DNA from: Stramenopiles sp. TOSAG23-2
Taxonomy: Eukaryota
Length of the DNA stretch: 49,847 bases
Assembly: GCA_900128395.1 (NCBI GenBank)
Contig: LT649270.1
Location: forward strand, 1-49,847
Direction: 5' to 3'
Shown: piece after piece, positions 7,101-48,842 of the stretch
Layout of the letters: each line of letters starts with the position of its first letter
How positions within the stretch are numbered: the first letter of the stretch is position 1
Translations under genes and position numbers: made by a program
Notes under the pieces: model-generated
Databases searched by the model: none
What the model was told of the DNA's origin: nothing
The model's input: the letters and a program-made list of their open reading frames with translations, nothing else

Positions 7101-9436
7101 TTGTCGCACGCACCACGACCGTAACATTCTTGGCCATCTTCGCTTGATTTGCATGGTTGTAACTCACAACTTGCTCCAGTAAAAGGTTCTCTGCATTTAC
7201 ATACGCCGTCGTAGATGCCACTTGTTGTGCCGTTTACGTCTTCATGGCATTCACCGCGGCCATTACACATGAAAGTTTCATTTGCATTTGGGCAACGTAG
7301 CTTTCGTGAACAATCTTCATCAGCGAAACCGATATCGCATTTGCATAGACCGGTTTTATCGTCGCATTTACCTTGTTTGCTACAATCTTTTGGGCAACTG
7401 CGTTTGTCGCATTTGAAACCAGCATAACCATCGTTACATACGCATTTTTCAGCTCTGCACTGCCCGTTACCACTGCAAGCAACGAGTGGGGTCAAACCTT
7501 CAGGACAACGTACATCGATGCTACAATCTCTACCACCCCAACCGGTTTTACATACACAGCCAGATTTCCCTTCAGCAATTTCATTACATGAACCATGATC
7601 TGCATCTGTACAATTATTTGGGCATTGCGCATCATCTTTAACGGCGCATCCTGGGCCAGTGAAACCATCGTTACAAGTGCATGTTCCATCCACGTCGTTG
7701 CACTTGCCATTTCCACTGCAATCTTTTGGGCAGCTGCGCGTGCTACAATCAGCACCTTTGTAACCAGTAGCACATACACATCCAGTATCTCTACATGCAC
7801 CATGTCCGGAACATTTTGGTTCCCCTGGGCATTTTTTGGTACAATTTTCACACTTTACTTGTTGCGAACAATCTGTTCCATTGAAACCTTTATGGCACAA
7901 GCACATACCTTCCAGGCATATACCTTGATTGGAACAATTGCGTGGGCATTGAGTAATCGGGCGTGTATGCTCTTCAATGAGTTTCTCTGCGTTTTCACAT
8001 CTATCACCAGTGAATTTACCGACACATTCGCATTTGCCATTTTTGTACACACCGTTATTTTGACAGTCGCCTGGACAGACACCATTTACATCAAAGGTGG
8101 CGATCTTAGCAATTTTGCTATCACAGGTAACATCATCACAACCAGCAAAATAAATAGCTTTATCTGATGATAATGCTAATGCTGCTGCTTTTCCATTTCT
8201 TAACGCAGGTTTCCAATTTGCCTCTGCACTAACAGTAACTTTGTTCCAAGTTTTGGTTTGTGTAGTAAATTTCCACATTTCATCGTTGCAATTATCATTA
8301 TTGCTACAACCACCTATAACATATAAATTACCATTTAAGAAAAAGGACGACATTTTGCCTCCAGCACTTGGTGAATCACCAGCAGCTATTGCTAATTTCA
8401 TCCATTTCGTAGCAGCTGCATCGTCGTACACATACACAGTGCCTTTATTTTCTGCTTCTGCATCAACTGGCGTGCCATTTTTCAACGCACCACCAAAGAT
8501 GTAAACTTTACCTTCATTGGCAGCAGCAGTATGGGTTGTTCGTACCGATGGAGCATCCGTGCCTGGCAATTTAGTCCATGTATACGAGCCATCCTCGTTT
8601 CTGATTAGTTTCCATGCATCGTTTAATGTATTACCGTCAAGCGACTCACCACCAAATAATAAGGCTGTGCTGTCTGATATTTTCGTCAACGTTGCACCGA
8701 TACGTGCCTTTGGCATACCGTCTGCCTCTGTTGCAGCTGTAGGCCTCATAGGTGCTACAGAAACATCTCCATTTGCTTTCACTGTGTATACAATACCTTG
8801 GCCAGGCTTCATTTTATTCTCTTCATTACCAGCAGCAAAAACTACGAAATCTCCTTTTTTACCATCGTTGCTAAACCATACTTTAGCTGCTTTTGCTCTA
8901 TTTACTTGATTTTGTTCCAAATTAAAATTTTCTGCTAACGTAGGTGTTACTTTTTTCCAACCACCTGCACCAGCACCGTTCATATCAACTTTTGTATCTA
9001 ACTTGTAAATGCCGTTGAATGTTTTGTCATCACTTTTGTAACCACCAACTACGAACAATTCTTTATTTTCAGCACCATTTGTTCTAAGAAATACTCCTGG
9101 ATTTCTACGATCCTCAGGGGCATTTGTTAACTCTTTTGATTCTGTCCAGTGTGGACATTTATTCGCAGTTACGCTTTCACCTAAAGCTTGTGCCAAAGCT
9201 TGGCGATCTGCCATAGCAAATGCTTTAGAAGATGATGCAGCTGCATCAACTTGTTGAAAACGCTGTTGATCTGCCGCCTCAACAATCATATTATTACTAT
9301 TGTCACTATTTATATTACTATCACTAGCTGGTACATTTACACTAAAACCAGAAAGGTCTGATTCTTTTATTCCATGTACACTAGTACATGCAATAATAAA
9401 TGCTATAACTAAACTAATCAATAAAGAAACACGCAT
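4121..9436 (-). CDS. Type I membrane protein with a Kelch beta-propeller and about 31 tenascin/teneurin-type EGF repeats
   Basis: Signal peptide; Kelch motifs (LFVVGG, LLFGG, YIFGG, LYVIGG); 31 CPxxCSxxGxCxxGxCxCxxGxxGxxC modules counted; TM segment VLNVIIVAVGSILIGAVVNVAF; short cytoplasmic tail. Intronless, 1771 aa. Confidence 0.9.
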   Translation of the reverse strand: MRVSLLISLVIAFIIACTSVHGIKESDLSGFSVNVPASDSNINSDNSNNMIVEAADQQRFQQVDAAASSSKAFAMADRQALAQALGESVTANKCPHWTESKELTNAPEDRRNPGVFLRTNGAENKELFVVGGYKSDDKTFNGIYKLDTKVDMNGAGAGGWKKVTPTLAENFNLEQNQVNRAKAAKVWFSNDGKKGDFVVFAAGNEENKMKPGQGIVYTVKANGDVSVAPMRPTAATEADGMPKARIGATLTKISDSTALLFGGESLDGNTLNDAWKLIRNEDGSYTWTKLPGTDAPSVRTTHTAAANEGKVYIFGGALKNGTPVDAEAENKGTVYVYDDAAATKWMKLAIAAGDSPSAGGKMSSFFLNGNLYVIGGCSNNDNCNDEMWKFTTQTKTWNKVTVSAEANWKPALRNGKAAALALSSDKAIYFAGCDDVTCDSKIAKIATFDVNGVCPGDCQNNGVYKNGKCECVGKFTGDRCENAEKLIEEHTRPITQCPRNCSNQGICLEGMCLCHKGFNGTDCSQQVKCENCTKKCPGEPKCSGHGACRDTGCVCATGYKGADCSTRSCPKDCSGNGKCNDVDGTCTCNDGFTGPGCAVKDDAQCPNNCTDADHGSCNEIAEGKSGCVCKTGWGGRDCSIDVRCPEGLTPLVACSGNGQCRAEKCVCNDGYAGFKCDKRSCPKDCSKQGKCDDKTGLCKCDIGFADEDCSRKLRCPNANETFMCNGRGECHEDVNGTTSGIYDGVCKCREPFTGASCELQPCKSSEDGQECYGRGACDKKTGLCACEQGFAGQACELQCDQKCNNNGRCFAKTPTRPLCDCKPGFRGVSCQIQIGCPGNKGPKGACTGNGDCVRGVCHCFPGFSGDACDVAFKCGAKGCSNHGDCRHGQCHCHPGFSGEHCDVVVQCPKGCSGHGECLNGRCYCDAAFSGKGCAVPVECPKSCSERGICIRGKCECQMGFSGEACEVALQTKGCPRNCSLHGDCHLGKCFCHPNYESHDCSRYVTPKCPKGDTYLESAVCSDRGLCTVGGKCQCYPGYHGDDCSKAHKCPQDCNLRGLCFNKRCFCNPGFSGEFCERREPCPGTPECSDRGLCVNGECTCEPGYGGAACEVVFLGKDVCPKGCSGNGLCQVGKCFCSPGFGGKDCSLPAGEICPGGGNCNGNGQCHHGSCFCNPGWTGEACDLVVPCEAGCNAHGSCYHGRCFCNSGWTGKNCSKQMEPGVIPPGNAVKPGNCPNGCSMHGICFRGECMCNAGYQGIDCSRKDDTWKESDRCPNDCRGSHAARAAGQYGLCLMGQCYCYPGFTGPSCQEVLPLRCPRDCSNRGICSYGKCFCDLGYTGAACENKKKCPLNCNGNGLCHHGQCDCNPGFSGDLCEKQTGNECKNGCSNHGRCYMGKCWCQPGYEGDDCSQLNYPNVPVKGEQPRSAGGPNIITREAVGPVTSGAKYGSTQHAMEVRKLEDRLTHGPILSGAQFENAAEAKEHDKPTAAKDARFKASAVQVVSSSDKKCTLKCGKHGICVNDNGNNKCDCEPGFDGEKCEKALTCGPNACGGRGVCKYGTCFCNPGFTGPQCAEKVACENNCNSNGVCKFGKCFCNKGFEGNDCGTETQCPSVNDSPCTGHGVCNLGQCECDEAHEGADCAKKIENALQCTLDCNNRGLCHKGRCFCTEGFSGSSCEINLHDGAVDLSASNVVGKTPSVSTMRFGVLNVIIVAVGSILIGAVVNVAFNHLSNKRKEMLASKAINSKPLPTITQSSGFFMLDTEETPSSNSNNM

Positions 9437-10460
9437 GATTAATATTTAAATCTATTAAACTACTGTATATATTTAAATCAATATATATATATATAAATAA
9501 ATATATATATATTAAAACTAATTTGTTTCTCGATCTTCTACAAATTAGACTCGTTATATATATCTGTTCTACTATGTATGTATATTCTTTGTATGACTAG
9601 TCTTTCCCTCTCCCCCGTCTCTGTATATCAATGTACATATATATAATTTCTTGAAGGTTTTCTATCATGATCGATTTCCCCTCTTTTTTGCTTCCTTCCT
9701 TCCTCTTCCGGAGACGTACCAGTACAATAGCATTGGGAAGAGGTTTTTTTCGTTCGATAAAATTGTTCTAAATTTTGGGAATCTGAAAATATAAATATGG
9801 AAATCATGATAGTATTTATAAGTTTTTATAACTATAGAAATAATTTATTATATTTAATATTTTACGGATATTGTTATGGTATATTTCATATATGCCATAA
9901 AAATTGGAAAATTAGAGAGAACGATTAGACCGATCCTTTATTTTGGACCTCAATGCTATTCCGATGCTAAAGTATCGTTCTGAAAAAAATTGACTGGGCC
10001 TGCTGTGGCTCCTTTTGATCCTTCCTGGCCGGGCTGGCCTTTTCCTCCTCTGCTGTTCTGCAATAAACTCACTCTGAAGTAGAATATATGGACGTAGCTA
10101 CTGTTATAATTCTAATAATACGCCATGCTGCACCAATACTACAGTACTGACGTTTCACTACCGTTGAGAAAATTGAAAAATATTATTATTACCAGTCCTG
10201 GCATCAGTATTGTATCATCATCACAGTATTAGGGAACAATAACAGACAATATATTGTTTACATATATATATCTGGTTGTACATATTACACACACGTATAT
10301 CATATACATAGACATATATAGTATATAGATACATATTAACAAAGAACAGGTATACAAACTATTCAAGAATATTAATATTCTTATATATATATATATATTA
10401 GTTGTTAATTATATTTTGCAATATATATATATATATATATATAGTACGTAAAAATTAGTC

Positions 10461-29758: not shown

Positions 29759-31036
29759 TTATCGATGCATATGATCATAAAAATGATTCAATGCACTCAA
29801 ACAATCTTGTTCGGATTCTTTCTTTTTAGATGTATTTCCTCTACACGGTTGTGAGTTTGCTTTCATTTTCCATGATCCATTTGCTGCTTTGTAAAACGTG
29901 CAAATAATATACCCAACGAATGCACCAAAATTAGCTAAAGCATAACGGTGTGTCTCTACATTTCCCTGATTGAGCAATCGGACATATGCATTTTTAATTC
30001 CGGTGAATTTATCACCATCATAAGAATTAGCTAACACCATGCAATAGGATACATTCATTGGCAATCTTGTAAAATCAATAACAATACTTTCATCATCGCC
30101 ATCCCCTTCACCTGTGCGGTTATCGCCGCTATGTCGAACAGCCCCATTGAATAATACTTTCCTACCAAAGAAACATGTATCTAAACATCTGTAATTTGCA
30201 TCGTAACATTTAACAGATGCATCCAAGTCAATAGCTTTACTAACCATATCCCATCCACAACCAACAGTACATTGTGTACCAGAAATTTGTAATGATTCAC
30301 CTTTTGTCAATATTAATGATTTTGGTGGTTTACGTACTTCAATACCTGGAATTATATCTTCGGACAATCCTTGGCATTCAGGTATTAACCCGGCAAAACA
30401 ATTTTCATTTCCAGTAGCACAAATATTGTTGAAATACCATCGATTATCTTGCGAATATGCACGTGCTGCAATGATAGAAGTAGCTGTTCTAGATTCACAT
30501 GCCATACTGCAATTATGAATTTCAACTGGTTTACCAAGATTGGCAACTACACGGCAAGTTGCAGTTTTCACATTGCGAAAGGAATCCCCATTGAACGAAT
30601 TGACTACAAAGTATACGACAGCAATACCTTGTTGCTTCAAACCATCTAAATCAATCTCAATCACTTCATCATCCCCTTCTCCTTTCCCGTCTCTGTTATC
30701 ACCATGATGCAAAATTGCTCTTGCAAACGGTCTCATTTCAGCAAAGTAGCAAGCGCCTTTAAAACGTCCTTCTGCATCTAAACAAATTGCACTTAAGTCC
30801 AAATCAGTATCTCCTTTGCCATCACCATCTTTGTCTGCGAAATCCCATGATAACCCAATGCGATAGTCATGTCCACTGGAACCATCAGTCGTCAACTCTT
30901 CCTTTGTTTCAGATAAATCTTTTCCCTTGACTTCTGCAATACTCACGGTTTTTGCTTGGATTGGTACTGCGTTTACGACAATATTGCTTGCCCCATAATT
31001 GGTAATAGGCACTGCATTTACAACAATTTGTGCCAT
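29759..31036 (-). CDS. Tandem TerD-domain protein (TerD/TerZ, CABP1-like)
   Basis: Two domains, each with GLSWD/GCGWD, DLDLSA/DLDAS and H.GDNR.G.G.GDDE.I.ID motifs. Confidence 0.92.
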   Translation of the reverse strand: MAQIVVNAVPITNYGASNIVVNAVPIQAKTVSIAEVKGKDLSETKEELTTDGSSGHDYRIGLSWDFADKDGDGKGDTDLDLSAICLDAEGRFKGACYFAEMRPFARAILHHGDNRDGKGEGDDEVIEIDLDGLKQQGIAVVYFVVNSFNGDSFRNVKTATCRVVANLGKPVEIHNCSMACESRTATSIIAARAYSQDNRWYFNNICATGNENCFAGLIPECQGLSEDIIPGIEVRKPPKSLILTKGESLQISGTQCTVGCGWDMVSKAIDLDASVKCYDANYRCLDTCFFGRKVLFNGAVRHSGDNRTGEGDGDDESIVIDFTRLPMNVSYCMVLANSYDGDKFTGIKNAYVRLLNQGNVETHRYALANFGAFVGYIICTFYKAANGSWKMKANSQPCRGNTSKKKESEQDCLSALNHFYDHMHR

Positions 31037-31755
31037 CGTGATAATATTGTATGTGTATTATATTGTTTGATATTTAATATGTTTCTTTTTTTGTTTTATT
31101 TGGTATCTACCATGTATGATATGTGTTTCTCTCTCTCTCTCTATCTATATATTGTATCTATCAATCTATCTCACTATGTGCCTATGTACATATTATAATA
31201 TCTTTGCAAGTGTGTTTTGCCCCCCCGGGCCAGCGGGCCAACTTTATCCATGTAACAGGTTTATAGCATTGTATTGGAAACAAGATCGGATATATTACAA
31301 CATATCAATTTGTAGAAAATATTATTAGAAATTATAGATAAAATATTATTAGTCTTTACATTTACAATACAATTATTATGTGTTAAAATATTAAAAAATG
31401 ATTATATTAATATCTATATTTTTATTAAATTATCTGGAAATAATGGTCCTAAAAAAATATAATAAATGATTGCCGGCTGGCGGTGATGGCTGGATGTACT
31501 CGATAAGCCGCCAGTTGTATTGTATGTTGTATGTAAGAGCACATCATAAAACAACAACAAGCACATAAATATGACTTAAATAATAAATTTAAATTTATAT
31601 AGAATCTAACGTAGTAATTATAGAATAATAATAGCTAATTAACCGCTGCCACAAGAAAAAGAAGATTGACAAAGTATACATACCTACTATCAGAGGAGAA
31701 GTGGAGAGTCAATAATCATACAGAAATATAAAGATTTATACTAAACAACAACAAC

Positions 31756-34338: not shown

Positions 34339-35794
34339 ATGCCAATTAAAAAGAAAACTAGAATAAGTAGATCGAATTCAACACCATTGCATCATCGTTT
34401 CAATGTTCATGATTATAAAAATACAAACAAAATACCACATATCAATGAAATTTTAACATATCATATTGATAAATTCGACAAGCAAAATAATGTCACAGGT
34501 GGCAAATCAAGGCAATCCCCAATGCTTGGTATGGGTAGATTGCAAAAGTTAAAGTTTGAACAACGTGGAAAAGGTGCAGTGGTGAAAAAAAAAAGATGGC
34601 CTTGGTCCACGTGAACCTCGTGAAGTCACGATATCACAAGCAAAACGTTTCCAAGTATTATTTACTGGTGTTATTGATCCAGATCCAGCAAGGCAACAAG
34701 CAACGACAAACTTATTAAATAAATTTTTCGAAGCAGCGCCAAAGTCACAAAAAAGACCAGTAACCGTTGGACCGCGTATACGGTATTCACAACCAGATTA
34801 TTTTTTATTGCCAGACGAAGAGCCATTGACAAAACCAGTCATATTTCATAAAAATCGACGTTTTGAAGATGAATCGAAAAAATTTAAAGATCCAGGGCAA
34901 GAGAAACTAAGTTCGACGCTTGATGTTGATTCCAGAGCATGGAATCACATGTCTGCATATATCCAATCCCCGACTAAAAGTATACGAAGGAAACCGTTGA
35001 AATTAGACAATCCACCACATTGTTATATAACTTCAAAACATAAAGTGAAACCATTCGTTGATACGTCGTTGTTAGCATACCATACACAATTTCAATCTAA
35101 ACGTGATCGTTTTCAAAAAGAATTTTCAACAAAAGGCGATGCGCCTGGACCAGGCACATACCCATACCCGCGCGATAGTTGCAAAATAAAAGATCCAAAA
35201 CGCAATACATCTAGCTTTGTGCAACTGTCATACAAACCAACAAAAAAACCAATTAAAAAAGGATATACGCGACCAATAGATCATAACGAAACAATGAAAA
35301 CAATCATTGCAAGAAGAAGACACATGGTGTCATACAAACCAACAAAAAAACCAATTAAAAAAGGATATACGCGACCAATAGATCATAACGAAACAATGAA
35401 AACAATCATTGCAAGAAGAAGACACATGGAATTACCATTTCCAAAACGTAGATTTACTCCAAAACCAAAAAAGCAAAATAAAAATTTAGGCCCAGGAGAA
35501 TACGAAAATACTTTAAATGGATGGGAATTTTGTCGTGGTAAAGAACGTTTTCATAAATTCAATTTAGGTGGTATGTCTAGATATGGTAGTAGTGGTGGTA
35601 CCACTGTTGATACTATTTTAAATAATTTCGATCCAAATGAACCACGAAAACATAAATGGCCTAGAGATGGATTTGATATAGATCCAGCTATTGTAAAGAG
35701 TACTGATTTTTGGAAAATTGAAAGACAACAAAATGGTGGTAAAGCTGATAGTGATGATGATACAGACGAAGAGGATGATTGGGAATATGAATAA
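34339..35794 (+). CDS. SHIPPO/ODF3 (PGPG-repeat)-like ciliary protein, split by a +1 frameshift in an A10 run
   Basis: Removing one A from 34585-34594 joins the 34339 ORF (…GAVVKKK) to an open frame DGLGPREPREV…, which runs into the 34808 ORF. APGPGTYP and LGPGEYE motifs are present. Confidence 0.65.
35226..35429. repeat. Perfect tandem duplication, period 102 bp (in frame)
   Basis: tgtcatacaaacc...cacatgg at 35226 and 35328, giving a 34 aa repeat in the ORF. Confidence 0.95.
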
Positions 35795-35990
35795 AAAAAA
35801 ACGAAAAAAAAAACCCTTCTTGACGGTAAATATATACCACGCGCGTACCAACATATTAAATTTTTATAAATTTTGATACAGACGAAGAGGATGATTGGGA
35901 ATATGAATAAAAAAAAACGAAAAAAAAAACCCTTCTTGACGGTAAATATATACCACGCGCGTACCAACATATTAAATTTTTATAAATTTT
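35758..35990. repeat. Perfect tandem duplication, period 116 bp
   Basis: tgatacagacgaagagg...tataaatttt at 35758 and 35874, spanning the stop codon. Confidence 0.95.
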
Positions 35991-36065
35991 TTATTAATGG
36001 CGTGTGTACATAAAATATGCATATTAATTTTTTGTAGTTCGTACGAAGTTCGTAGCCTAATAGCG

Positions 36066-36440
36066 TGTAGAGTATTAGTTTGCAGAGGTGCATTAGGAGC
36101 TTTACCTATATATGTGTTTTTCTCTTACTCATATGTTATATAAAATTCTTTTACTCCCGTTTATTAACATCTCAAATCAAAAATGATTTATAAATTTTAG
36201 TAAAAATTATTTAGTATTCAAAAGATGTTTCCGCTGTCTGTGATTCAGAGCTAAATGAAAGAGGTCCTCCTTCATAAAGTTGTAAATCACACTTTACCTA
36301 TATTTATGATAGAATTGTTATTTTCTTGAAATTGAAAATTGAGTATATTGAGCACATAAATATTAGTTTTAATTTAGCACGGGGGAATTAAAATTATTAT
36401 TTAACGTGTTGTAACTTAGATTTTAACCACCATTTTCACA
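36066..36440. repeat. Dispersed repeat family, copy 2 (longest)
   Basis: Shares tgtagagtattagtttgcagaggtgcattag (31 bp identical) with 49421-49451 and 73 bp with 13284-13356. The taacttagattttaaccac motif is shared with both other copies. Confidence 0.85.
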
Positions 36441-36659
36441 CATGTATTTTTTAAAAAAAATTACAAAATCGCATTAGAGCACACCAATAAGTCTTTTTTT
36501 TATTTAAAAATTTTAAATGTGTCATAATAAAAATTAATGGGTAAAATCTAAAATCGGTGTTTAGTTTTAATTTAAGACTCTTTTAATAAAATTGCTGCAG
36601 ATAAAAATTAAACCCTGACACCTCACATGTATTTTAATTTTTTCCCTGCTTCCTTCCTT

Positions 36660-36939
36660 TTAATCTATCATTGCAACACGTGACTTTTTCTTCTTCTTTT
36701 TTTCACCTTTATTTTTACTGCTTTTTGGTGACAATTTCCCACTTCCGCTATTGGTACGACTACTGCTTTTCGTATCCCGACCAACAGAACATTTCTTTTT
36801 TTTCTTCTTTTTTTCACCTTTATTTTTACTGCTTTTTGGTGACAATTTCCCACTTCCGCTATTGGTACGACTACTGCTTTTCGTATCCCGACCAACAGAA
36901 CATTTCTTTTTTTTCTTCAATGTATTAGCAATTGCTATT

Positions 36940-36974
<35 letters not shown>

Positions 36975-38132
36975 TACATTCTCATATTTTTTCACTTGTA
37001 TAGCTAATCTAATATTTTTGACTCTAAATATAGAATAAGAATTGTCAAATATTAGTTTTACATTTGTATCATTTTCATCTGGTGGCCTAAATTTGCCAAA
37101 GCCACTCTGTTTACATATTTTATATGGTTGTAGCGTGTACGAATGAAACGACATGTTAGAGAGAGGATTTTAATTATAATCTCCAGGCTTGGGGTAATAA
37201 AATTTACTTACATTGCATCGAATATAAGCTCGCACAGGCTTTTCATCGTAAAACACAGAAAAACCAATATCAGCAGTTTCAAGTTTAAAATCCCATGTTA
37301 TTTCCGTATTTATATCAGCAGATATTGTGTGTTCATATTTTTGACGATTTTTGACTGTAATATCTAGCCGTGGTATGTTAGAATCCAATCTACGAGGAGG
37401 TGATGCAATTATAACACTTCCACCTCGTACAGCCTTTTTAAATCGTGGAGGAGATGGACTGTTTGTTTGGATTTTTTTGGCATCTTTGGATTGAGTGGTA
37501 TCATTGTTTTCATTATCACCATTGTTCGATACAGAATTGGTGCTATTGCTATTGTTCAATTCGATTTTAGCACGTGTTAATTCATTTTGAAATTTTAACA
37601 CTAGATGTTCCAACACTTCCACTTCCCGTCTTAGCTCTTGATTTTCTTGCAAAACACTTTTATAATTATTCGCAATCAAGTTACGCTTTCCTTCCATTTC
37701 ACGAACTTTTGCCTTCAAATAATTAGGCGCATCTTCCATTAATTTGGCTACAGAATAATTTGCGCTTTCAAGTTCCATTTGCAACGTCATTAAACGCTGA
37801 GCATCTTTTACAACTTTATCCATCATTGCATTTTTGTCTTTATTAGCTAGATTTAATTCCTCCTCCTTTTTTTTCAATTCGGTAGCCTTTTCTTCATATT
37901 TTTCTTCCAACACTTGGAATTGTGCCTCTTGCTGTTGAAACAACGTCGTAGATTTAATTTTATATTCATTTATTGATTCGTTTTCATTAGTTTCTTTTCC
38001 TTGATCCTCGCCAGTATTTTCATCTGGATCTTCATTTGATAACATTGGCGGTGGTAAGGATGGTGGTAATAATAATATATCAACCTTTTCGTCATCATCA
38101 TTGACAATATCATCATTCTCAACAGTCGTTGC

Positions 38133-38165
<33 letters not shown>

Positions 38166-39425
38166 GTCAATATTATCATTATCCACTTTATTGATTTCTT
38201 TCGTTTTCTCCTCTGTTGTTGACGTTATCTTATTTTTTATATCACCTACATCATCATTGGCTTCAAAATTATTTTTAAACGATTTAAAACGTTCTAATGC
38301 ATTTTCCAGTAATTTACCTAAACGCTTTTCCCGCGCTTGTGAATTTAATAATTCTACTTCAAGTTTTTTCAATCTCGCTTTTAACTCGGCAGGGCTAGCT
38401 TCACTATTTACAACTGCTTTGTTTTTAATATTTTTCGCCCGTCTACCAAAACGCAATGTACTCAATGTTTCATAATCATTGTCAGATGATGGAGAACAGC
38501 ATAATATCAAACAAGTGATCGAATTTCCACCAAGATTTTCTCTTAAAATACGCGTTAATTTACTATCGCGATAAGGTACATGTGAACGAGATCGTTCCTC
38601 AGTCAATGCATTTATGACATTTCCCAGAGCAGATAAAGAGCGATTAATACTTTTCGCTTCTTCTAAACGATCTCCTTTTGCACCTGTTTTTCGAACCATT
38701 TCACTACCAGCTAAATCCACTAAAACAAGCCTTGATGACAATTTGATGCCACTACTCTCATTTGCTTGGATTAAATCGATTAAAAATAGACTATGTGATC
38801 TAGATGAGCCAGCATTCATACCAGTTGCTGCAACTTTTCTATTATTATTTCCTCGTTCCATAACTTCGTTCATTTCATCTTGGGATGTTACATATATTTG
38901 TGTTGACCCAATAATATCAGTTCTACCTTCTGTAGAAGATGTACGTAAATTCAAATTATTCTTTTCAATATCTAATAAATCTCGTATTTTTTCATTATAA
39001 ATTTCTACATAAGAACAACAAATACTAAATTCAACTGATGCTTCAGTGGATAATGCATGTGTAAAAATAGAATCAACAACTCTAGGAATAATTCCTCGTG
39101 AAGTATCGTTTCCATTCATTGTATGTGTTTTACCTGCTCCAGTTTGCCCATAAGCTAATAAGCAACCGTTTTTACCTTTTAAAAATTCTTCAATGATAGG
39201 TTTACCAGCTAGGTCATATACATCTTGTTGGGATGAATCTTCCGATAATATTTGATCAAATGAGAAAACGTGTTTATCACTATCTAAGGATTCCAAAGAT
39301 ACCGTCGTTGATACCCCGTGCCCATCTTTAATAATATTGACACATTTGTTTCCACCATTTTTCTTTTCCTTTGATGATTGTGGTCTAAATCTTAAACACA
39401 CTTTGATCTCATCCGTGGATGACAT
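36660..39425 (-). CDS. Kinesin (kinesin-1-like N-terminal motor) with a coiled-coil stalk and C-terminal GOLD domain, 2 exons
   Basis: Motor motifs GQTGAGKT, SSRSH, LVDLAGSE and HVPYRDSKLTR. Intron 37107-37211 (GTAAGT...CTAAC...CAG) joins ITWDFKLETADIGFSV...RCN to SGFG...VKLIFDNSYSIFRVKNI, a GOLD-type signature. Polybasic tail. Confidence 0.9.
36691..36918. repeat. Perfect tandem duplication, period 111 bp (in frame)
   Basis: The 37 aa KKKKKCSVGRDTK...KNKGE is duplicated; cacc occurs at 36704 and 36815. Confidence 0.9.
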
Positions 39426-40153
39426 TTTACTTATTTATATATTTATATATATAAATATATAAATAAGTAAAATGTCATCCACGGATGAGATCAAAGTGTG
39501 TTTAAGATTTAGACCACAATCATCAAAGGAAAAGAAAAATGGTGGAAACAAATGTGTCAATATTATTAAAGATGGGCACGGGGTATCAACGACGGTATCT
39601 TTGGAATCCTTAGATAGTGATAAACACGTTTTCTCATTTGATCAAATATTATCGGAAGATTCATCCCAACAAGATGTATATGACCTAGCTGGTAAACCTA
39701 TCATTGAAGAATTTTTAAAAGGTAAAAACGGTTGCTTATTAGCTTATGGGCAAACTGGAGCAGGTAAAACACATACAATGAATGGAAACGATACTTCACG
39801 AGGAATTATTCCTAGAGTTGTTGATTCTATTTTTACACATGCATTATCCACTGAAGCATCAGTTGAATTTAGTATTTGTTGTTCTTATGTAGAAATTTAT
39901 AATGAAAAAATACGAGATTTATTAGATATTGAAAAGAATAATTTGAATTTACGTACATCTTCTACAGAAGGTAGAACTGATATTATTGGGTCAACACAAA
40001 TATATGTAACATCCCAAGATGAAATGAACGAAGTTATGGAACGAGGAAATAATAATAGAAAAGTTGCAGCAACTGGTATGAATGCTGGCTCATCTAGATC
40101 ACATAGTCTATTTTTAATCGATTTAATCCAAGCAAATGAGAGTAGTGGCATCA
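38744..40153. repeat. Perfect spacerless palindrome, two 705 bp arms
   Basis: The arms are reverse complements about a centre at 39448/39449, inside an (AT)n tract. The first mismatch is at 38743/40154. Confidence 0.97.
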
Positions 40154-40158
40154 TTTAG
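39472..40158 (+). pseudogene. Inverted truncated copy of the kinesin 5' region (probably an amplification chimera)
   Basis: Identical to the first 227 aa of the kinesin and stops before switch II (DLAGSE). Confidence 0.8.
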
Positions 40159-40161
40159 ACC

Positions 40162-41481
40162 ATGATACACTCAAAATCGTCACCATTGAACGTGACAAAA
40201 ATAAACATAAATGAGCAACAACCCGATCTATCATTAATATTGACGAGAAGACGTTCAAGTGTACAACGCAATTTAGAAAAATTACAAAAACGATTTCAAC
40301 ATTTGAATTCACCACCATCAAAAAATACAACAAATAATGTTGATATACCGTTAAAATTTCGTCGCAGACAATCCACAGCGATCATGGAGAAAACAACGTA
40401 TAAAGCAAAAGATAGTTTTACTTTGAAAAACAACAATAATTTCAGCCACAATACTACGGACTATCCGCTAAATGTATCCAATGATTTTTTAAGAGATTTG
40501 AGAAATGACTTTGTATTGCCAGAAGAGCAAAAAAACGACAATATAAGCAATAACGAGTTGTACAGCGATCAAAATCTATTGAAACGCGAATCGTTAAAAT
40601 TTGATAAAGGCATACGAGGTGTGTTGACGAAATTGTGGCTTCTAGTTGATAGCAATAATGATAATACTATAGAAAAACACGAATATTATGAATTACACCG
40701 TCGTTTATTACGTGCTTTAGTCGGTGTAGTATCCGTGGAAGAGGAACGTGTTATGTGCGATGAAGATTGGATACAAGATATTGGTATTAGTAATATCGAT
40801 TGCGATGAAAACAAAAGCACAATTGAAAATATTATGACTAAAAAGCAATTCATAAATGCATTTTTTCGAATGGTTGATTTATGGACTGAAAAAATATGCG
40901 TAGATGAATATTATACATTCTTATCAGATGCATTTAATCGTATCTCGATGCCAGATGGCATTGGTGGATATATGTTTAAAAATATAGACGATGTAAAACG
41001 ACGTTCTAGACGTGCTTCAATGATTGTCATCAATGGTAAGGTGTGTTTGAGTGAACCAAAGGGAAATGTCCCAAAGAAAAAGAAGAAGAAAAAGAAACTT
41101 AAGAAACAAGATAATGAAGGGTGGTGGTGTAGATTATATGGCACGGGTCCATGGTGGAACCGTTTAAAAGGAGTGAAAAAAAGTACAAAAAGCAAGAAGA
41201 ATCCCCATCATCATCAACAACAACATATCCTTCACCATTATTATCACGAGAAAAATATTGTGCCACCATTAGTTAATTCAAGTAAACTTGTCACTACTGC
41301 TATATCTTATAAGAGGAACCCCGCCCCTACATATTATAATATGGAGCTAAACAAACCGTTGAAACAACAAGAACGTAAAACAAAGATGACTTTTTCTAAC
41401 TGCATGAATAATGGCGATAACAATAATGCTGAGATTATTAGCAACTCTCTAGGTAATAATAAAATTAATAATCCATCTTAA
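40162..41481 (+). CDS. EF-hand-containing protein (possibly 5'-truncated)
   Basis: EF loop DSNNDNTIEKHE followed by D.W..D and F..AFFRMVDLWT...DEYYTFL. The ORF starts 9 bp after the palindrome end. Confidence 0.7.
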   Translation: MIHSKSSPLNVTKININEQQPDLSLILTRRRSSVQRNLEKLQKRFQHLNSPPSKNTTNNVDIPLKFRRRQSTAIMEKTTYKAKDSFTLKNNNNFSHNTTDYPLNVSNDFLRDLRNDFVLPEEQKNDNISNNELYSDQNLLKRESLKFDKGIRGVLTKLWLLVDSNNDNTIEKHEYYELHRRLLRALVGVVSVEEERVMCDEDWIQDIGISNIDCDENKSTIENIMTKKQFINAFFRMVDLWTEKICVDEYYTFLSDAFNRISMPDGIGGYMFKNIDDVKRRSRRASMIVINGKVCLSEPKGNVPKKKKKKKKLKKQDNEGWWCRLYGTGPWWNRLKGVKKSTKSKKNPHHHQQQHILHHYYHEKNIVPPLVNSSKLVTTAISYKRNPAPTYYNMELNKPLKQQERKTKMTFSNCMNNGDNNNAEIISNSLGNNKINNPS

Positions 41482-42688
41482 ATGGGTCAATACCTTCTAT
41501 TTCAATATTACGATATTTCATCATTTTGGCAAGCAATTCAACTTTTTTCGATTTGCCATATGGATGGTAGATAAACGTAGCAGTTTTCATATTCTCATAG
41601 ATCTCGTTATCATCCATGATATTAATATTATAATCATCATCATCATGTACATTTGTATTTAATAATGAGGGTGACAATACAGCTGTATGTACAAACAATT
41701 TAATAGGATCTCCACCATCCTTTGTAAAATATGGCTCTTCAATTATTAGATTCAATCCTTCTGCATAGCGCTTTAATACACGTATTAGTGCAGATTGCTC
41801 AAAATGTGGTACATGAAAATATTTCTTTTCTTTCCATACTTCATCGAATATTTTCAATGACCAATCACAAACTCGTATTAATATTACACCGCAATTAATT
41901 AACATGCTTTGATCCTCAGCAACTATCAAATCGCGATTTTCACCAAGTTTAACAATATCTTGTAACCTTATTTTATCATTAACAACACATGCATCTGCAT
42001 CAATCCATGCAATGTAAGTGTTTCCTTTCATAACATCGTCGTCGTCACCACCACCATCATCAACACTTTTATTGTTACAATAATCATGATGGGAAGATAA
42101 TAGTGATAATTCCTTTTTCATAAACTTTAATATCATATATACTTTATACCATGTGCAATGATTTCTGTTACCTAATATAGATGGTAATGTCTCAGGATCA
42201 ATTTTTTCCTCTACAAATTGATAATTGTGCAAATTACAATATTTTTTATTAATAGCACTACATAATGTACCAATGGTATAATTTTGTGTATATGCTGTCA
42301 ATACAATAAATTTATTACTGCTGGTGGTGGTGGTCGAGGTACTATCAGCATTATTATTATTACTACTAGTGGTAATATTACTATTTTGATCACCACGAGC
42401 ATAAACAAGATATTCACTCAAAATATTTTTTGTTGTAGATTCCAGCGAAATAATTTCTTTTGATAAGTTTATAATTAATTCATTTTTACATATTTTAATA
42501 CATGATGTTATTTTTTGTTTCTCCATTTTGGTCAAGTCTCGCTTTAAAAAAACAGTTTTGATTTTGATCATCACTTCATTATATTTAATATTGCGTATCA
42601 TTTGTTTCCGTGCTGCTGTTGATATTACTTTTTCTTTCGTTGTAACTATCACAATATTTTCCATTACTTGCTTTACAATTTCTTCCAT
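41465..42688 (-). CDS. Glycosyltransferase family 34 (GMA12/MNN10-like)
   Basis: Motifs NKKYC..HNY, WYKV, WIDADA (DxD), INCGVILIR..DWS and EQSAL. The first ATG is at 42688, but the frame stays open up to the cysteine synthase TGA at 42794. Confidence 0.85.
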   Translation of the reverse strand: MEEIVKQVMENIVIVTTKEKVISTAARKQMIRNIKYNEVMIKIKTVFLKRDLTKMEKQKITSCIKICKNELIINLSKEIISLESTTKNILSEYLVYARGDQNSNITTSSNNNNADSTSTTTTSSNKFIVLTAYTQNYTIGTLCSAINKKYCNLHNYQFVEEKIDPETLPSILGNRNHCTWYKVYMILKFMKKELSLLSSHHDYCNNKSVDDGGGDDDDVMKGNTYIAWIDADACVVNDKIRLQDIVKLGENRDLIVAEDQSMLINCGVILIRVCDWSLKIFDEVWKEKKYFHVPHFEQSALIRVLKRYAEGLNLIIEEPYFTKDGGDPIKLFVHTAVLSPSLLNTNVHDDDDYNINIMDDNEIYENMKTATFIYHPYGKSKKVELLAKMMKYRNIEIEGIDPFKMDY

Positions 42689-42793
42689 ATTGATATTATT
42701 TTCTTGTTCTACTTCCACTGTTGTTGTTGTTGTTGTTGTTTGTGGTGGAAAGGAAAGGAGAGAGGAAGATGCCGAGGTAGTAGAAATTGATTG

Positions 42794-44535
42794 TCATAAG
42801 GAAGGTTGTTTTCCTGAATTTGTATTCATCATTTTCATGATCATCATCTTCTTCTTCTTCTTGTTATTATCATCACCATTGCTGCTTCTACTAATAGTTG
42901 GTGGTATTTTTAAATTATATTTTTTTAAATAATCATAATTCCAAAATTTAGTCAAATGACGTTGACCACCATCACATAATATAGTAACAATTGTATGGCC
43001 AGGACCAATTTGTTTACAATATTCAACAACTGCAGCACAATTTAATGACGACGAGCTACCGATAAATATTCCTTCATTCCGCAATATATAATGTGCCATA
43101 TCCACACACTGTTGATCAGTAATACGAATTGCATCATCAATATATTTCTCACCAATTAAAAAATTACCAACTAATCGATCAATACCAACACCTTCTGTAA
43201 TAGTGTCAAAACGATGACGTTCCAATTTTCGTTCCGCTTGTTGTGGTGCATATGCTATACCATCCTTTACACGATGGTATAAAACAGATCCAGTTGGATC
43301 CGCTAAAATAATTTTGACCCCACCTTCCCCTTTCTTTTCTTTTAAATACGTCCCAACACCCGATATAGTCCCGCCTGTTCCAGCTCCCATAATAAAAGCA
43401 TCAACTTGACCATTTGTTTGCTCATAAATTTCTTTACCTGTACCATTATAATGTGCACGAAAATTTGCTAGATTTTCAAATTGATCCGTATAAAATGCAC
43501 CTTTCGTCGTATCTGCAATTTTTTTCGCTACATTATTATAATGTTTATCATTAACAATTGATGCTGGGTCAACCGTTTTTACCTGTAACGGACAACGCGA
43601 CAAAAAGTTTGTAAAGCGATCCGTATAAAATGCACCTTTCGTCGTATCTGCAATTTTTTTCGCTACATTATTATAATGTTTATCATTAACAATTGATGCT
43701 GGGTCAACCGTTTTTACCTGTAACGGACAACGCGACAAAAAGTTTGTAAAGCGCAGCGTAGGAGGTGATAAATGTATTTATTATTACATGTTAGATCGAC
43801 AACGGTTACTGTATATATATAATATTATTATTATACTTACTATTGCACCAAATTTTTTTAACAAATCTGTTTTTTCTTTTGCTGCATCATTTGGCATAAC
43901 AATATGGCATTTGTAACCCCTTGATGCTGCCATTAATGAAAGCGATATACCTGTACTACTATTATTATTATACTTACTATTGCACCAAATTTTTTTAACA
44001 AATCTGTTTTTTCTTTTGCTGCATCATTTGGCATAACAATATGGCATTTGTAACCCCTTGATGCTGCCATTAATGAAAGCGATATACCTGTACTACCTGC
44101 TGTACCTTCTACGATGGTACCACCTTTTTTTAGATGTCCTGATTTTTCAGCTTCAAGAACCATTTGCTTTGCTATCCTATCCTTTGAGGAACCACCAGGA
44201 TTCAAAAATTCACACTTTGCATATATTCTATTAGATGTTAATTTAGATAACGATTTCAATTCAATTAATGGTGTTTGCCCGATTAATTGCGGTAATGCTG
44301 ATTGTTGCGAGGTAGTTGTATCTCCTCTGGTGAAAGTTGCTTCATTAATTGTCTTATTGTTTGTTCGTCCTGTAAGTATTGGTTTTGATGATACTTTATT
44401 GACATTATCATTATTATTATTAGTGTTGTTGTAATTATTATTTTTATATAATAATTGTTGTTTATTGATATATTTATTGCGTAGAACAATGTATGATGTT
44501 GTACCAATTGTTAATAATACATAATATGATGACAT
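42794..44535 (-). CDS. Cysteine synthase 2-like PLP enzyme (MCY1/cys12 type) with an N-terminal hydrophobic anchor, intron-containing
   Basis: Motifs IGQTPL, KCEFLNPGGSSKDR (PLP lysine), EGTAGSTGI, DQFENLAN..AHY.GTG.EI, GAGTGGTISG, RHRFDTITEGVG and TILCDGGQRHL. Splicing 43977 to 43583 (or 43840 to 43718 after de-duplication) restores the frame. Confidence 0.9.
43483..43753. repeat. Perfect tandem duplication, period 135 bp, including an intron acceptor
   Basis: gatccgtataaaatgc...gtaaagc at 43483 and 43618. Confidence 0.95.
43718..43840 (-). other. Spliceosomal intron carrying a sequence shared with the 46454-46877 intron
   Basis: GTAAGT...TTGTCGATCTAACATGTAATAATAAAT...CTCCTACGCTGCGCTTTACAAACTTTTT...TTACAG; phase 0. 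Confidence 0.85.
43823..44096. repeat. Perfect tandem duplication, period 137 bp, including an intron donor
   Basis: tattattattatacttac...ctgtactac at 43823 and 43960. Confidence 0.95.
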
Positions 44536-44737
44536 TTCTTTCAAAGTTTGTTGACGAAACAATAAGTAATTTGTATGTTATTGATTTCTATCAGAAAGAT
44601 ATAATGTCTTGTATATATGTATTTTAATAATACATAATATGATGACATTTCTTTCAAAGTTTGTTGACGAAACAATAAGTAATTTGTATGTTATTGATTT
44701 CTATCAGAAAGATATAATGTCTTGTATATATGTATTT
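44511..44737. repeat. Perfect tandem duplication, period 113 bp
   Basis: ttaataatacataatatgatgac... at 44511 and 44624. Confidence 0.95.
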
Positions 44738-45300
44738 GCTTTCTGCTTTGTTCTATTATCTACTATTATTATTAATTAAATTTGTGTGTTCTGCAGTCCA
44801 GCTGGCCAGGCAGTTTTAAAAGTTATGACGAAATAAAAAATTTATTCTAAAATCATAAAAATTATTATTTTGTATTTAAATTAATTTATTAATGATAAAA
44901 TAACTATTATTACGCTATTATTTTGTTTAAAATAAAAAATAAATTATAAACAATGATTATTTAAATAATGCTTTTCAATAGTTTTTACATTTTTTTACGT
45001 TATTATTAACTGTTATATCCGTAATTAATAATTAAAAAAGAAAATTAAAATTAAAAAATTAAAATTTAAATCCAATTTAATGATTTTTGAAATAATATTT
45101 AACTTATATCACTTATAATTAACCATAAAGAAATTATTTTGATCAAAATTAACATTTTAAAAATTTTTATAATTTTTTCACATTTTTTTCAATTTTGTTT
45201 TTCTACTGTCGTTTACCACCAAATTCAAAAACATAATAAAGCAAAATAATATTAAATAATATATATAATGTTGCTAATGAATAAGTATGTATAAATACAG

Positions 45301-48300
45301 CGCGCACCATATCAACCATATTATTCAATCCCAGCATCTATAATGAAACTTCATTCCCAATATTAGACCCTGTCAATACGCACATAAAGCATATAAAACA
45401 ACTAAACAATAATTATAACATGGCTGATATTCGTCCAATATTATTATCCACTCTTGCTGCGTTAGATAAAATTCATTCCCAAAGTCACGCACATAAAGCA
45501 TATAAAACAACTAAACAATAATTATAACATGGCTGATATTCGTCCAATATTATTATCCACTCTTGCTGCGTTAGATAAAATTCATTCCCAAAGTCGATTA
45601 TTAAATACCAAAGAATTAGATACCTATGAAAATATACGTTTCAATTCCAAATGTCAAGTTTGTTTTATTAATTCATTTTTCAAGCAAAATCGTCCTAGCG
45701 TTATATCACCTTTGGAATCGCCAGAAGTATTGTTAAATTCCGAATATGTTACTAAAAAATCTGACGTTTGGAGTTTTGGTTGTTTATTATTATATCTTTT
45801 ACGTGGTAAGCATATCTTTTATGGCTCAACAACTACACAAATTTTAGCTAGTATATGTCAAGCAAACTTAAATAAAGACGGCATAAGGTCAATGGTATCA
45901 GCAAAATGTGGGGAAAATGTAATTGACATCATTTCCAAATGCCTGCAACGCGTCCCATCAGAAAGACCAACGATACGAGAAATATTTAAACACAAATTTT
46001 GGGCCAAAGAAGGTTTAGGTGAGACAATGGAACAGGATATAGCAAAATATTTTACGAATAAAATTAATAATATATTATTGGACAAGAAAGTGGTAGAAGA
46101 AGAAGAAGATAGTATTGGTAATAAGAATAATAGAAAGAAATGGAACAGGATATAGCAAAATATTTTACGAATAAAATTAATAATATATTATTGGACAAGA
46201 AAGTGGTAGAAGAAGAAGAAGATAGTATTGGTAATAAGAATAATAGAAAGAGTCATCATCAAACAGATGCTGCTATTGCAAATAATAATAAAATTACCAG
46301 TGATATAGAAAGAACAACAAATGTTAAAATAGATAAAACAATTCCAATTGTAAGAGATAATATACTCCATTTAACTGTTGATAAAATTAGATTAGCATCA
46401 ACAACTGTTACATGGGCAGCAGCATTTTCACAATCTCCCGTCAAAATGGTACAGTAAGTTTATATAATAAAATATAACAAATCATCATCATCTAACGACT
46501 ATTTAATTACATTTGTACTAACATATATACATATAATCTATTAAATGTTGCGAATCTAATATATTAATGACGTTGTAATCTATAATACCAACCCTTGTCG
46601 ATCGAACATATAATAAATGCAATTGCAATTGTAACGAATATACATATATATATATATATAAATCAAACACTGTCGATCCAATAAATAATAAATGCTAAAT
46701 GCAATTGCCACCTACGCTACTACTCCTACGCTGCGCTTCACAAACATATATATATATATATAAATCAAACACTGTCGATCCAATAAATAATAAATGCTAA
46801 ATGCAATTGCCACCTACGCTACTACTCCTACGCTGCGCTTCACAAAACTTTTTTCATATTATCGTTGTATTTATCAGCATAATGTTATCGATTAATGTAT
46901 GGAAAAATGTAAATGATATGAATACATTTGGCAAAAAATTTTATGCAAATAAATGGTGTGATGGAAGTCCAATCTCTGGGACATTGGCTGATGGATCGTT
47001 TATTTCAAAGATTGGACAAAATTTTAGATATAATATTAGTTCCAAACAATTGTTTCGTGGTTTAAATCGTCATCATTTCAACAATAATAAATCACCAAAC
47101 GAGACAGCACAAAAATCTCGTGAATTAATGGCAATTATATTAATACGTTTAGAATCTATTATCATTGGCTCTGCAATAGTTCCATTATCAAATATTGGAT
47201 CCATGGGAGTAATCAATGGCTATTATCATATTACACATCAAGGAAAAATAATGGGTCAAATTAAAGTATCTGCTTGCCCAACTGCACCAAATATTATAGA
47301 TGAATCATCTTATATCCCTGTCTTATCAATGTCGTCACCAACAACAACACCATCATCATCATCATCACCACCACCCTTATCAAAAGAAAAAGAACAAAAT
47401 GATCATCAACAACAGCTGCACCAAATATTATAGATGAATCATCTTATATCCCTGTCTTATCAATGTCGTCACCAACAACAACACCATCATCATCATCATC
47501 ACCACCACCCTTATCAAAAGAAAAAGAACAAAATGATCATCAACAACAGTTGTTACCAACTGTACCAAAACTTTCAATGGAAAATCTATATGGTAGTGAT
47601 AGTAATAGTACTAATAATACAATTGACACCAATAATAGTATTAATCATAGTAGTAGGAGTAGTGGCCGCGAAGACCACTTTTTAACTTTGTTAAAAGTAA
47701 CTGGTGGAGAAGATAGTGAAGCAGCGCGATTTAAAGCCCAAGATAATGAAATAAGTATCAATATAATAATAGTATTAATCATAGTAGTAGGAGTAGTGGC
47801 CGCGAAGACCACTTTTTAACTTTGTTAAAAGTAACTGGTGGAGAAGATAGTGAAGCAGCGCGATTTAAAGCCCAAGATAATGAAATAAGTATCAATATCA
47901 AAACTCGGTTAAAAAATATTAGATCAGCAGTGGAAAATTTGAAAGTTTTTCAAAAGAATAATGGTAAAGCTCCATCATTAGAACGATTTGCTGCATCAGG
48001 AGGAACGAATAATAATGAAGAATGTGATCCGAATAATGAATTTATATATCCACCTGTTACAGTACATAGAGGACATGTCGGTGATAATAGACATTATAGC
48101 AACAATAAGATAAAAAATAAAAATAATAACAGTAATCGCCGAGACGATCATTTCTCACCTTCATCATCAAATCAACAATCATTATCAATGGCATCATCAT
48201 CATTATCATCATCCAGAAAAAATAAAAATAAAAATCGGACAAGGAGTAAATTTAATAATAATAATAATAATAATAATAGTAAAAGTATTAATAGAAAAGG

Positions 48301-48842
48301 CAGGAGTACCTCACGTAACCAACAACAACGTAAAGGACAATCACCAAAATATATTAATAATGTAGATATTGATAGTATCAATATTTTAAATAGAAGTGAT
48401 AGTAGTAGTAGTAGTAGTAATGGTAATAGTAGTGATAATATTGTTGCTGCTAATGAAAATTTTCCACCAGGATATTGATAGTATCAATATTTTAAATAGA
48501 AGTGATAGTAGTAGTAGTAGTAGTAATGGTAATAGTAGTGATAATATTGTTGCTGCTAATGAAAATTTTCCACCAGCCGATGAATATTCTTTAACACCAA
48601 GTAAAAATTTTCAACGAATGCAAAGTCGATTAGAAAAATGGTCTACTTGGTGGGAATCTCAAAATGGATCCGGAGACATGTCGTTTATCGATGATGATGA
48701 AAACGAATTTGCAAATGAAACAACTTTTACTTCTAGTAATAGTAGAAGAAGTAATAAAAGTAGAGACTCAAAAGTAATGGGAAAAAAAATAGAACTGAAT
48801 AATAATACAAGTGGCGATGGTACATGGTGGCAGGTAAAATAG
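45301..48842 (+). CDS. Pseudokinase C-lobe + C2 domain (C2CD3-like) + Ser/Asn-rich tail; frame broken only by tandem duplications
   Basis: SPEVLL...SDVWSFGCLL...CLQRVPSERPT without HRD or DFG. Intron 46454-46877 (phase 2, CA|C) joins LHLTVDKI to IIGSAIVPL...INGYYHI...GQIKVSACP. Collapsing the duplications at 45378, 46026, 47282, 47631 and 48365 links the ORF pieces through to the stop at 48842. The 5' end is uncertain (acceptor-like CAG at 45300). Confidence 0.65.
45378..45595. repeat. Perfect tandem duplication, period 109 bp
   Basis: acgcacataaagc...cccaaagtc at 45378 and 45487. Confidence 0.95.
46026..46251. repeat. Perfect tandem duplication, period 113 bp (frameshifting)
   Basis: aatggaacaggatat...tagaaaga at 46026 and 46139. 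Confidence 0.95.
46454..46877 (+). other. Spliceosomal intron carrying a sequence shared with the 43718-43840 intron
   Basis: GTAAGT donor at 46454 and ATCAG acceptor at 46877. Contains TGTCGATC..AA.....TAATAAAT units and CTCCTACGCTGCGCTTCACAAAACTTTTT. Confidence 0.75.
46642..46846. repeat. Perfect tandem duplication, period 102 bp (intronic)
   Basis: acatatatat...gcgcttcacaa at 46642 and 46744. Confidence 0.95.
47282..47549. repeat. Perfect tandem duplication, period 134 bp (frameshifting)
   Basis: ctgcaccaaatatt...caacaacag at 47282 and 47416. Confidence 0.95.
47631..47898. repeat. Perfect tandem duplication, period 134 bp (frameshifting)
   Basis: aataatagtattaatc...atcaatat at 47631 and 47765. 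Confidence 0.95.
48365..48576. repeat. Perfect tandem duplication, period 106 bp (frameshifting)
   Basis: gatattgatagtatc...ccaccag at 48365 and 48471. Confidence 0.95.

Follow-up and report, generated by a model that had tools for sequence, protein, structure and literature searches.

Does the TGA codon between a cysteine synthase gene and a glycosyltransferase (GT) gene on contig LT649270.1 of Stramenopiles sp. TOSAG23-2 simply separate two proteins, or does it let some ribosomes pass and so join them? The contig, 49,847 nucleotides (nt) long and referred to here as the window, corresponds to contig C646 in a eukaryotic assembly of 32.8 Mb and 9146 contigs, and its DNA was matched in marine sequencing runs (20 of 24 rows, 13 studies; two rows are flagged as a possible source). 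We take the organism to be probably a marine heterotrophic stramenopile; to call it a MAST would be a guess. An earlier note on this DNA had inferred programmed readthrough at the TGA. The present analysis indicates that the locus is real and conserved and that the stop is probably subject to programmed readthrough. We consider it fairly likely, judging from sequence comparison, that a selected leaky UGA yields a minor, functional cysteine synthase-GT fusion of approximately 910 residues, probably beside the free synthase and the free GT. The original inference is supported in part: another species keeps the gene order, the reading frame, the stop and the 16 nt around it, and no RNA contig spans the junction.

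On the minus strand, the sequence reads TCC TTA TGA CAA TCA ATT, preceded by CCT, with the TGA at 42796-42794 (Table 1). The synthase lies upstream and the GT downstream in one common frame, with Pfam domain PALP on one side of the TGA and GT34 on the other (25.3 bits, cut-off 23). From the stop, 442 codons remain open to position 41465, and the first downstream ATG, at 42688, is 35 codons past the TGA. Rereading the strand thus confirmed several observations of the earlier note, namely the position of the TGA, the stop-CARYYA context formed with the following CAATCA, and a frame that stays open into the GT34 domain. The absence of an AT-rich spacer was also borne out (37% GC between TGA and ATG; for 187 putative starts of the same genome, the 105 nt that precede them have a median of 24%), as was the predominance of TAA among the stops of the window, which ends 14 of its 22 frames of at least 200 codons (TGA 5, TAG 3).

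Because tandem duplications and a misjoin occur in this region, an error in the TGA was suspected first. Such an error might have put a stop into a genuine fusion or shifted the frame at the GAA repeat in the synthase tail, and it would suit a window rich in artefacts (13 tandem duplications and a misjoin at 41472) and a tail whose shifted frame reads as an acidic peptide. It is excluded because metagenome contig JACLAC010022295.1 (L003) keeps the TGA in frame, and because contig 18 of X5, an independent DNA run, reaches from 41472 to 42914 and has no listed difference at 42794-96; a further DNA run, X7, gave no contig piece over the junction. The stop and frame are also common to L004, the locus of another species described below, and the peptide KQPSL before the stop is the C-terminus of all five same-species synthase records examined and of P0161. 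A sequencing or assembly error, including the nonsense error once listed as an alternative, is therefore refuted to near certainty. A one-base indel in the GAA repeat that would let the synthase end at a TAA near 42698 is likewise out, since L003 and X5 share the frame. What did prove false is the end of the GT at 41465, which had been taken as the end of the feature: the window lacks approximately 1.39 kb at 41472, and contigs C2520 and C2589 carry the true C-terminus.

Comparison between lineages carries the argument. A metagenome scan yielded two loci, L003 and L004, from 344 candidate stretches, and the DNA-level comparison of the junction covers two species. L004 (MDSZ01007149.1) represents another species, whose proteins share 193 of 362 residues of the GT and 207 of 224 of the synthase core with those of the window species, and four-fold degenerate sites agree at chance level (synthase 28 of 84, GT 13 of 61), indicating saturation. 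The gene order and frame are the same in L004, which reads ATA TCC TTA TGA CAA TCA ACA and then has 17 open codons before the GT Met; the open frame after the TGA comprises 442 codons in the window, 464 in L003 and 386 in L004. The orthologues are thus linked and in frame in this relative, a point on which the earlier inference had been exposed to contradiction.

The 16 nt TCCTTA-TGA-CAATCAA are identical in the window, L003 and L004, including all third positions, which indicates that the constraint acts on nucleotides. The sequence around them varies in length, with 219 nt from the end of the PALP core to the GT ATG in L003 and 87 nt in L004, so that tail and linker sizes differ. This 16-mer is the only word longer than 7 nt common to the L003 and L004 junctions, and 300 codon shuffles reach 13 at most. 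As a control, both neighbouring orthologous genes swap TAA and TGA between the species and have no common stop context. That the 16-nt context is kept despite saturated synonymous sites, while neighbouring stops are not, provides strong comparative support for readthrough, and selection for leakiness is the simplest account of a nucleotide-exact island that lies on the stop with the frame kept on both sides. A conserved peptide in the -1 frame (MTIN...) is not favoured, as it diverges after 4 codons and ends at 32 and 12 residues.

A third lineage is represented by proteins, with a synthase (P0160, ending in HTPSL) and a GT (P0003) each encoded on a JGI contig of 5257 nt, and it is through these proteins and the equal contig size that the lineage enters the comparison. 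In P0329, a relative, the GT Met is preceded by 26 open codons, including SYSLLS, which resembles SSSLLS of the window. The synthase tails are 38 residues long in the window, 17 in P0160 and 11 in L004, and all end in SL, an ending seen in 0 of 119 other synthase homologues. Although such a tail is dispensable in relatives (P0031 ends just past the domain), that of the window is open through to the same TGA, and shuffling gives a chance of 0.03 for 38 stop-free codons. No further junction DNA was obtained from prokaryote genomes (80 loci among the matches listed, all at 42% identity or less) or from viral contigs, which gave 11 distant GTs and 27 exact 16-mer matches, the latter without synthase or GT by tblastn.

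The stop context was also set against a genomic background of 80 stretches plus the window (844,747 nt), with uncurated frames that include intron run-ins. Frames of at least 200 codons (334) end in TAA (203), TGA (88) or TAG (43). Two of these ends are followed by CARYYA and five by at least 150 open codons, and both properties coincide at this locus only. A C at position +4 is scarce (23 of 334). TGACARYYA occurs at 1342 sites in the genome, and the motif alone is therefore expected by chance now and then, so that the argument is carried by its conservation. Elsewhere in this genome, e1-7185869 is a second TGA-CARYYA candidate, and on the minus strand of L187 (G000:C621:20001-30000) a 427-codon frame ends TCC TAA CAATCA and is followed by 11 open codons only. 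Two frame pairs split by a single TAA (761/514 and 460/532 codons) are present in L118 (G000:C635:10001-20000), on the plus strand near 2284 and on the minus strand near 6209 of the reversed strand; they have no leaky context, and their downstream sequence looks intronic or low-complexity.

The synthase comprises 448 residues as read from L003, with one inferred intron, and consists of a PALP domain with the pyridoxal phosphate (PLP) lysine and a GxGTGGT loop (best PDB match 5i7w, E 6e-68). Against the prokaryote-trained NCBIfam equivalog PRK10717 (cysteine synthase A), the L004 protein scores 364.4 bits, below the cut-off of 387. The synthase falls with the 'cysteine synthase 2' proteins of oomycetes and fungi, which are N-anchored (yeast YGR012W/Mcy1 type, a link drawn from the names of the fungal and oomycete matches); its best named homologues, oomycete proteins with 60-63% identity, likewise begin with a hydrophobic stretch. 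The oomycete and fungal members differ from the present protein in their unrelated tails, and no GT-fused form was found among them. As to the hydrophobic N-terminal anchor previously ascribed to the synthase, the best 19-residue Kyte-Doolittle mean is a weak 0.92 in the window, 1.52 in L004 and 1.5-1.9 in four homologues. [quoted passage not shown] A second cysteine synthase paralogue of the same genome (L002, G000:C2296) has an ordinary end, TGA TTT.

The GT comprises 430 residues in L003 and matches PF05637 with 25.3 and 26.8 bits, and 78 of 82 aligned members match at E <=0.1. Its structural model (mean predicted local distance difference test score 85.4) has a helical N-terminal domain followed by a GT-A fold, in which D230 and D232 of the DxD motif are invariant in 82 sequences. 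The best Foldseek matches of the model are 2p6w, the PBCV-1 capsid glycosyltransferase (E 1.2e-7), and 6bsu, XXT1 (E 6e-6). The protein thus has the GT-A fold and DxD motif in common with GT34 enzymes (XXT1/2/5, Mnn10/Gma12) and the PBCV-1 enzyme, with PF05637 just above its cut-off, whereas canonical GT34 enzymes carry a type II anchor in place of which this one has the helical domain. An affinity of that domain to DEK-C, suggested by a resemblance, was dropped because 0 of 82 members match it in Pfam.

An N-terminal transmembrane anchor was not detected in the GT (best hydropathy 0.77), nor is one usual in its family: within the first 80 residues, 1 of 156 members reaches at least 1.8 and two reach at least 1.5, some of these sequences being partial gene calls. 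A profile search returned 1210 representatives of this GT34-like family, whose named members come from green algae and a cercozoan. Partner domains in the family (ankyrin, RRM, LRR, cupin and MYND) suggest that its members are cytosolic or nuclear. Proteins P0180-P0327 outline a large, uncharacterised, anchor-less GT34-like family of protists and algae with a small helical N-terminal domain or partner domains, possibly nucleocytoplasmic glycosyltransferases. The family is, by these predictions, natively soluble and anchor-less, and orthologues of the GT start at the same Met. The argument that the GT needs the anchor of the synthase accordingly fails.

RNA evidence consists of contigs from two of six RNA runs that match the window. 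Contigs of this kind cannot show transcript starts, and gaps in their coverage, including that over the stop, are low-depth contig gaps that prove nothing. Upstream of the TGA, X16 record 12 covers 42850-43141. Downstream, the poly(A) RNA contig X15 record 5 covers 42417-42785 ungapped and keeps the spacer and a proposed splice acceptor beside GT coding sequence; its depth is 2.3, and it could be DNA or pre-mRNA. No RNA contig of the two runs crosses 42794-96, and readthrough itself stays a prediction.

That missing RNA link is one of several points that weigh against readthrough. The X15 contig ends at 42785, 9 nt past the TGA, an end that a transcription start could equally explain. Stop-free fusions were absent from a weak search of 7911 candidates of 754-2150 residues and from the best 150 of 1210 profile matches, and no PALP domain was found in the 29 and 82 GT-family members scanned. 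A stimulatory hairpin is not significant (z -0.4 to -1.5), and we know of no biochemical link between cysteine synthase and glycosyltransferase. In P0329, the peptide upstream of the GT Met does not start with QS. The comparison at the DNA level comprises only two species, and L004 taken alone would share the frame (1/3) over a stop-free spacer (0.47) with a chance of approximately 0.16. The GT Met is invariant in 6 of 6 aligned sequences, has a strong context in the window species and follows words that are also enriched ahead of other starts. An invariant, well-placed Met means that the GT can be made without readthrough, and a free GT from its own conserved ATG probably exists too.

The main rival to readthrough is two separate and tightly packed genes in which the 16-mer is a DNA or RNA cis-element, either a GT promoter or factor site or a 3'-end signal of the synthase, that overlaps the stop while the shared frame is coincidental. 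It is in keeping with the invariant Met and its context, with the end of the X15 contig, and with the complete, anchor-less, stand-alone GTs found elsewhere in the family. EukProt and other gene callers give two adjacent proteins (g13985/g13984), the 9-mer TGACAATCA formed by the stop and CAATCA is a TGA-N3-TCA palindrome, and another intergenic region also has a 13-nt word common to L003 and L004. However, none of 187 putative upstream regions contains TGACAATCA, and the 13-mer of the stop context is not enriched genome-wide (6 copies compared with 2 for a control), its 5 other copies lying inside long coding frames. A stretch stop-free over 35 codons is found in only 8 of the 187 upstream regions. 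In L004, just 51 nt would have to serve as both 3' and 5' untranslated region (UTR), and this spacer would make an awkward 5' UTR, since it has an ATG in another frame 8 nt ahead of that of the GT. Three coincidences would be needed, in that the element would have to equal a textbook leaky context, lie in register with the synthase stop, and sit in a frame kept in L004 and probably in the third lineage. We therefore regard a cis-element as unlikely.

A leaky stop could also have been selected for something other than the fusion, which would then be a by-product of a bicistronic mRNA that escapes nonsense-mediated decay (NMD) or favours re-initiation at the GT ATG. Readthrough of the Arabidopsis eRF1-1 stop partly rescues its own mRNA from NMD (PMC5397192), and in yeast inefficient stop recognition gives both fusion products and 80S re-initiation on bicistrons (PMC11952965). 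Such a mechanism would explain at once why both the context and the Met are conserved, and residues of tail and linker do vary freely; re-initiation, however, does not require frame conservation, and the yeast mechanism is selection-induced and independent of cis-elements (PMC11952965), which leaves this explanation decidedly improbable. Leaky scanning of the green-algal type (PMC11291117) is unlikely because 28 ATGs lie within the L004 synthase, whose start has a purine at -3; the traits of green-algal bicistrons, a weak start of the first open reading frame (ORF) and ATG depletion, are not seen there. Removal or recoding of the stop by splicing, adenosine-to-inosine editing, selenocysteine or genome-wide reassignment of UGA has very little probability. 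A pyrimidine tract and CAACAG in the spacer could suggest an intron, and RNA over the stop itself was not seen among the contigs of the two runs, but X15 record 5, DNA or pre-mRNA though it may be, keeps 42785-42417 ungapped including the proposed acceptor, and L004 has no pyrimidine tract, so that the intron ending at CAACAG that had been put forward earlier finds no support. Selenocysteine was rejected because no selenocysteine insertion sequence was found after either GT stop by Rfam (2 chance-level snoRNA matches) or by pattern, and UGA reassignment because UGA ends 88 of 334 long frames, the L002 paralogue and the L004 GT.

If the stop is leaky as we favour, one mRNA would run from the cysteine synthase through the glycosyltransferase, and most ribosomes would halt at the UGA and release the 448-residue synthase. 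In a minority of ribosomes, which by analogy with eRF1-1 may amount to a few percent, the CAAUCA context would allow a near-cognate tRNA to insert a residue, most likely Trp, Cys or Arg, at X in the junction peptide QPSL-X-QSIST. The predicted fusion product, of 913 residues in L003 and 799 in L004, would consist of the PLP enzyme, a flexible linker and the GT-A transferase. Should the synthase N-terminus be a mitochondrial outer-membrane signal anchor as in YGR012W, the fusion would tether a small pool of soluble GT there. Moving such a pool to a membrane surface would be the likeliest function, a supposition that itself builds on another.

Cellular readthrough mostly adds short or disordered tails, and the appending of whole enzymes is mostly viral, as in the 126/183-kDa readthrough arrangement of the tobacco mosaic virus (TMV) replicase. 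The present junction resembles that of tobamoviruses in that CARYYA follows the stop directly and an entire catalytic domain lies in frame downstream. It differs from TMV in that the stop is UGA and not UAG, the gene is nuclear, the downstream enzyme keeps its own start codon, and the two enzymes occur as separate proteins in every other organism examined. The TMV stop context is TAGCAATTA, and that of Arabidopsis eRF1-1 (AT5G47880) is TGACAATCA, identical to the 9-mer here; in that cellular gene, readthrough is moderate as measured, depends on the +4 C, and has a context conserved across angiosperms (PMC5397192), as the context is kept across species at this locus. The eRF1-1 readthrough serves NMD escape in an autoregulatory loop, whereas a complete enzyme of 370-430 residues follows the stop here. 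Readthrough extensions of fly and yeast likewise combine a conserved leaky stop with an open frame, yet they contain no Pfam domains (PMC4999894; PMC4973966), while the extension here is predicted to be a folded glycosyltransferase. The nearest protist parallel is provided by the 'RT genes' of Trichomonas (bioRxiv 10.64898/2026.08.31.748405), adjacent predicted genes approximately 100 nt apart, some functionally unrelated, that are proposed to be joined by readthrough; as described, they rest on long RNA reads and not on a conserved context, and here the context is conserved and spanning RNA is missing. The signal is one already known and its use is unusual, and the junction would work like tobamovirus or eRF1-1 readthrough. 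In the open-access literature we found no cysteine synthase-glycosyltransferase fusion by readthrough and no case of programmed readthrough in stramenopile-like protists, nor any mention of readthrough in the papers listed on marine stramenopiles (MAST).

Table 1. Features of the synthase-glycosyltransferase locus, in window coordinates
Feature	Position	Strand	Remarks
Cysteine synthase exon 1	43841..44535	-	ATG 44535; weakly hydrophobic N-terminus then basic residues; PLP-lysine motif NPGGSSKD; holds artefactual duplicated sequence, clean single copy is L003 274-831
Synthase intron, inferred	43718..43840	-	123 nt, GT..AG; orthologue in L004 intronless
Cysteine synthase exon 2	42797..43717	-	PALP domain, GAGTGGT motif; holds artefactual 135-nt duplicate
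Variable low-complexity C-terminal tail of synthase	42797..42910	-	38 residues in window
Conserved stop context, TCC TTA TGA CAA TCA A	42787..42802	-	16 nt, identical in window, L003 and L004
UGA stop, candidate readthrough codon	42794..42796	-	
CAATCA (CARYYA hexamer)	42788..42793	-	with TGA, the 9-mer of the Arabidopsis eRF1-1 stop
Spacer, 35 codons in frame	42689..42793	-	no stop, no ATG; linker if read through, else 5' UTR
GT N-terminal helical domain, residues 1-97	42398..42688	-	begins at invariant Met; its ATG, at 42688, has -3 A and +4 G
GT34-like GT-A domain	41472..42313	-	DxD as WIDADA, 42001-41993; anchor-less family
Assembly misjoin	41465..41472		approximately 1.39 kb missing; last 24 GT codons lost, false stop created
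Three tandem duplications, assembly artefacts	43473-43742, 43820-44093, 44511-44736		

Contigs of X5 pass over two of the duplications of Table 1 (43473-43742 and 44511-44736), and L003 has none of the three. The 13 near-exact tandem duplications of the window measure 102-137 nt and lie in 35226-48576 and 1548-1793, and frameshifts and repeats in the window should be treated as assembly artefacts. The misjoin at 41472 also cuts the convergent neighbour 40159-41481 (+), which has 440 codons compared with 736 in L003 and 732 in L004. Beyond it, 39463-40158 (+) is an inverted copy of the first 231 codons of a kinesin gene at 37170-39434 (-), probably an amplification chimera, which replaces a 1.2-kb intergenic region seen in L003 and gives rise to a spurious in-frame 'kinesin-TAG-ORF' pair. 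The 13-nt word GCTATTATAGCTA, common to L003 (5977) and L004 (5685), lies in the intergenic stretch that separates the divergent neighbour from the kinesin and may be chance or a promoter element. The first 550 nt of the window (1-550) have 56% GC compared with approximately 32% elsewhere, with an open frame that runs off the end, and are possibly foreign or chimeric. By eye from the translations, we take 4121-9445 (-) to encode a 1774-residue protein that combines kelch-like repeats, many EGF-like repeats and a hydrophobic segment at the C-terminus, 29759-31057 (-) a protein with two TerD-like domains, and 1716-3614 (-) a secreted-looking JmjC-like protein.

If true, readthrough at this locus would add stramenopile-like protists, here a marine group that is abundant and uncultured, to the organisms with programmed readthrough, and would show how a new gene fusion can form without loss of either parent protein; at 16 nt, the signal is short enough for a direct reporter assay. 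The locus also points to the large, uncharacterised, anchor-less GT34-like family of 1210 representatives. More tentatively, a virus-style leaky stop in a free-living eukaryote might here join two whole enzymes at a set ratio, and the fusion minority might bring a cytosolic GT to the mitochondrial surface, where it could glycosylate outer-membrane proteins or a thiol product of the synthase. Given the second TGA-CARYYA candidate of this genome, readthrough may then be a recurrent route to multi-domain proteins in this lineage, one missed by all gene callers.

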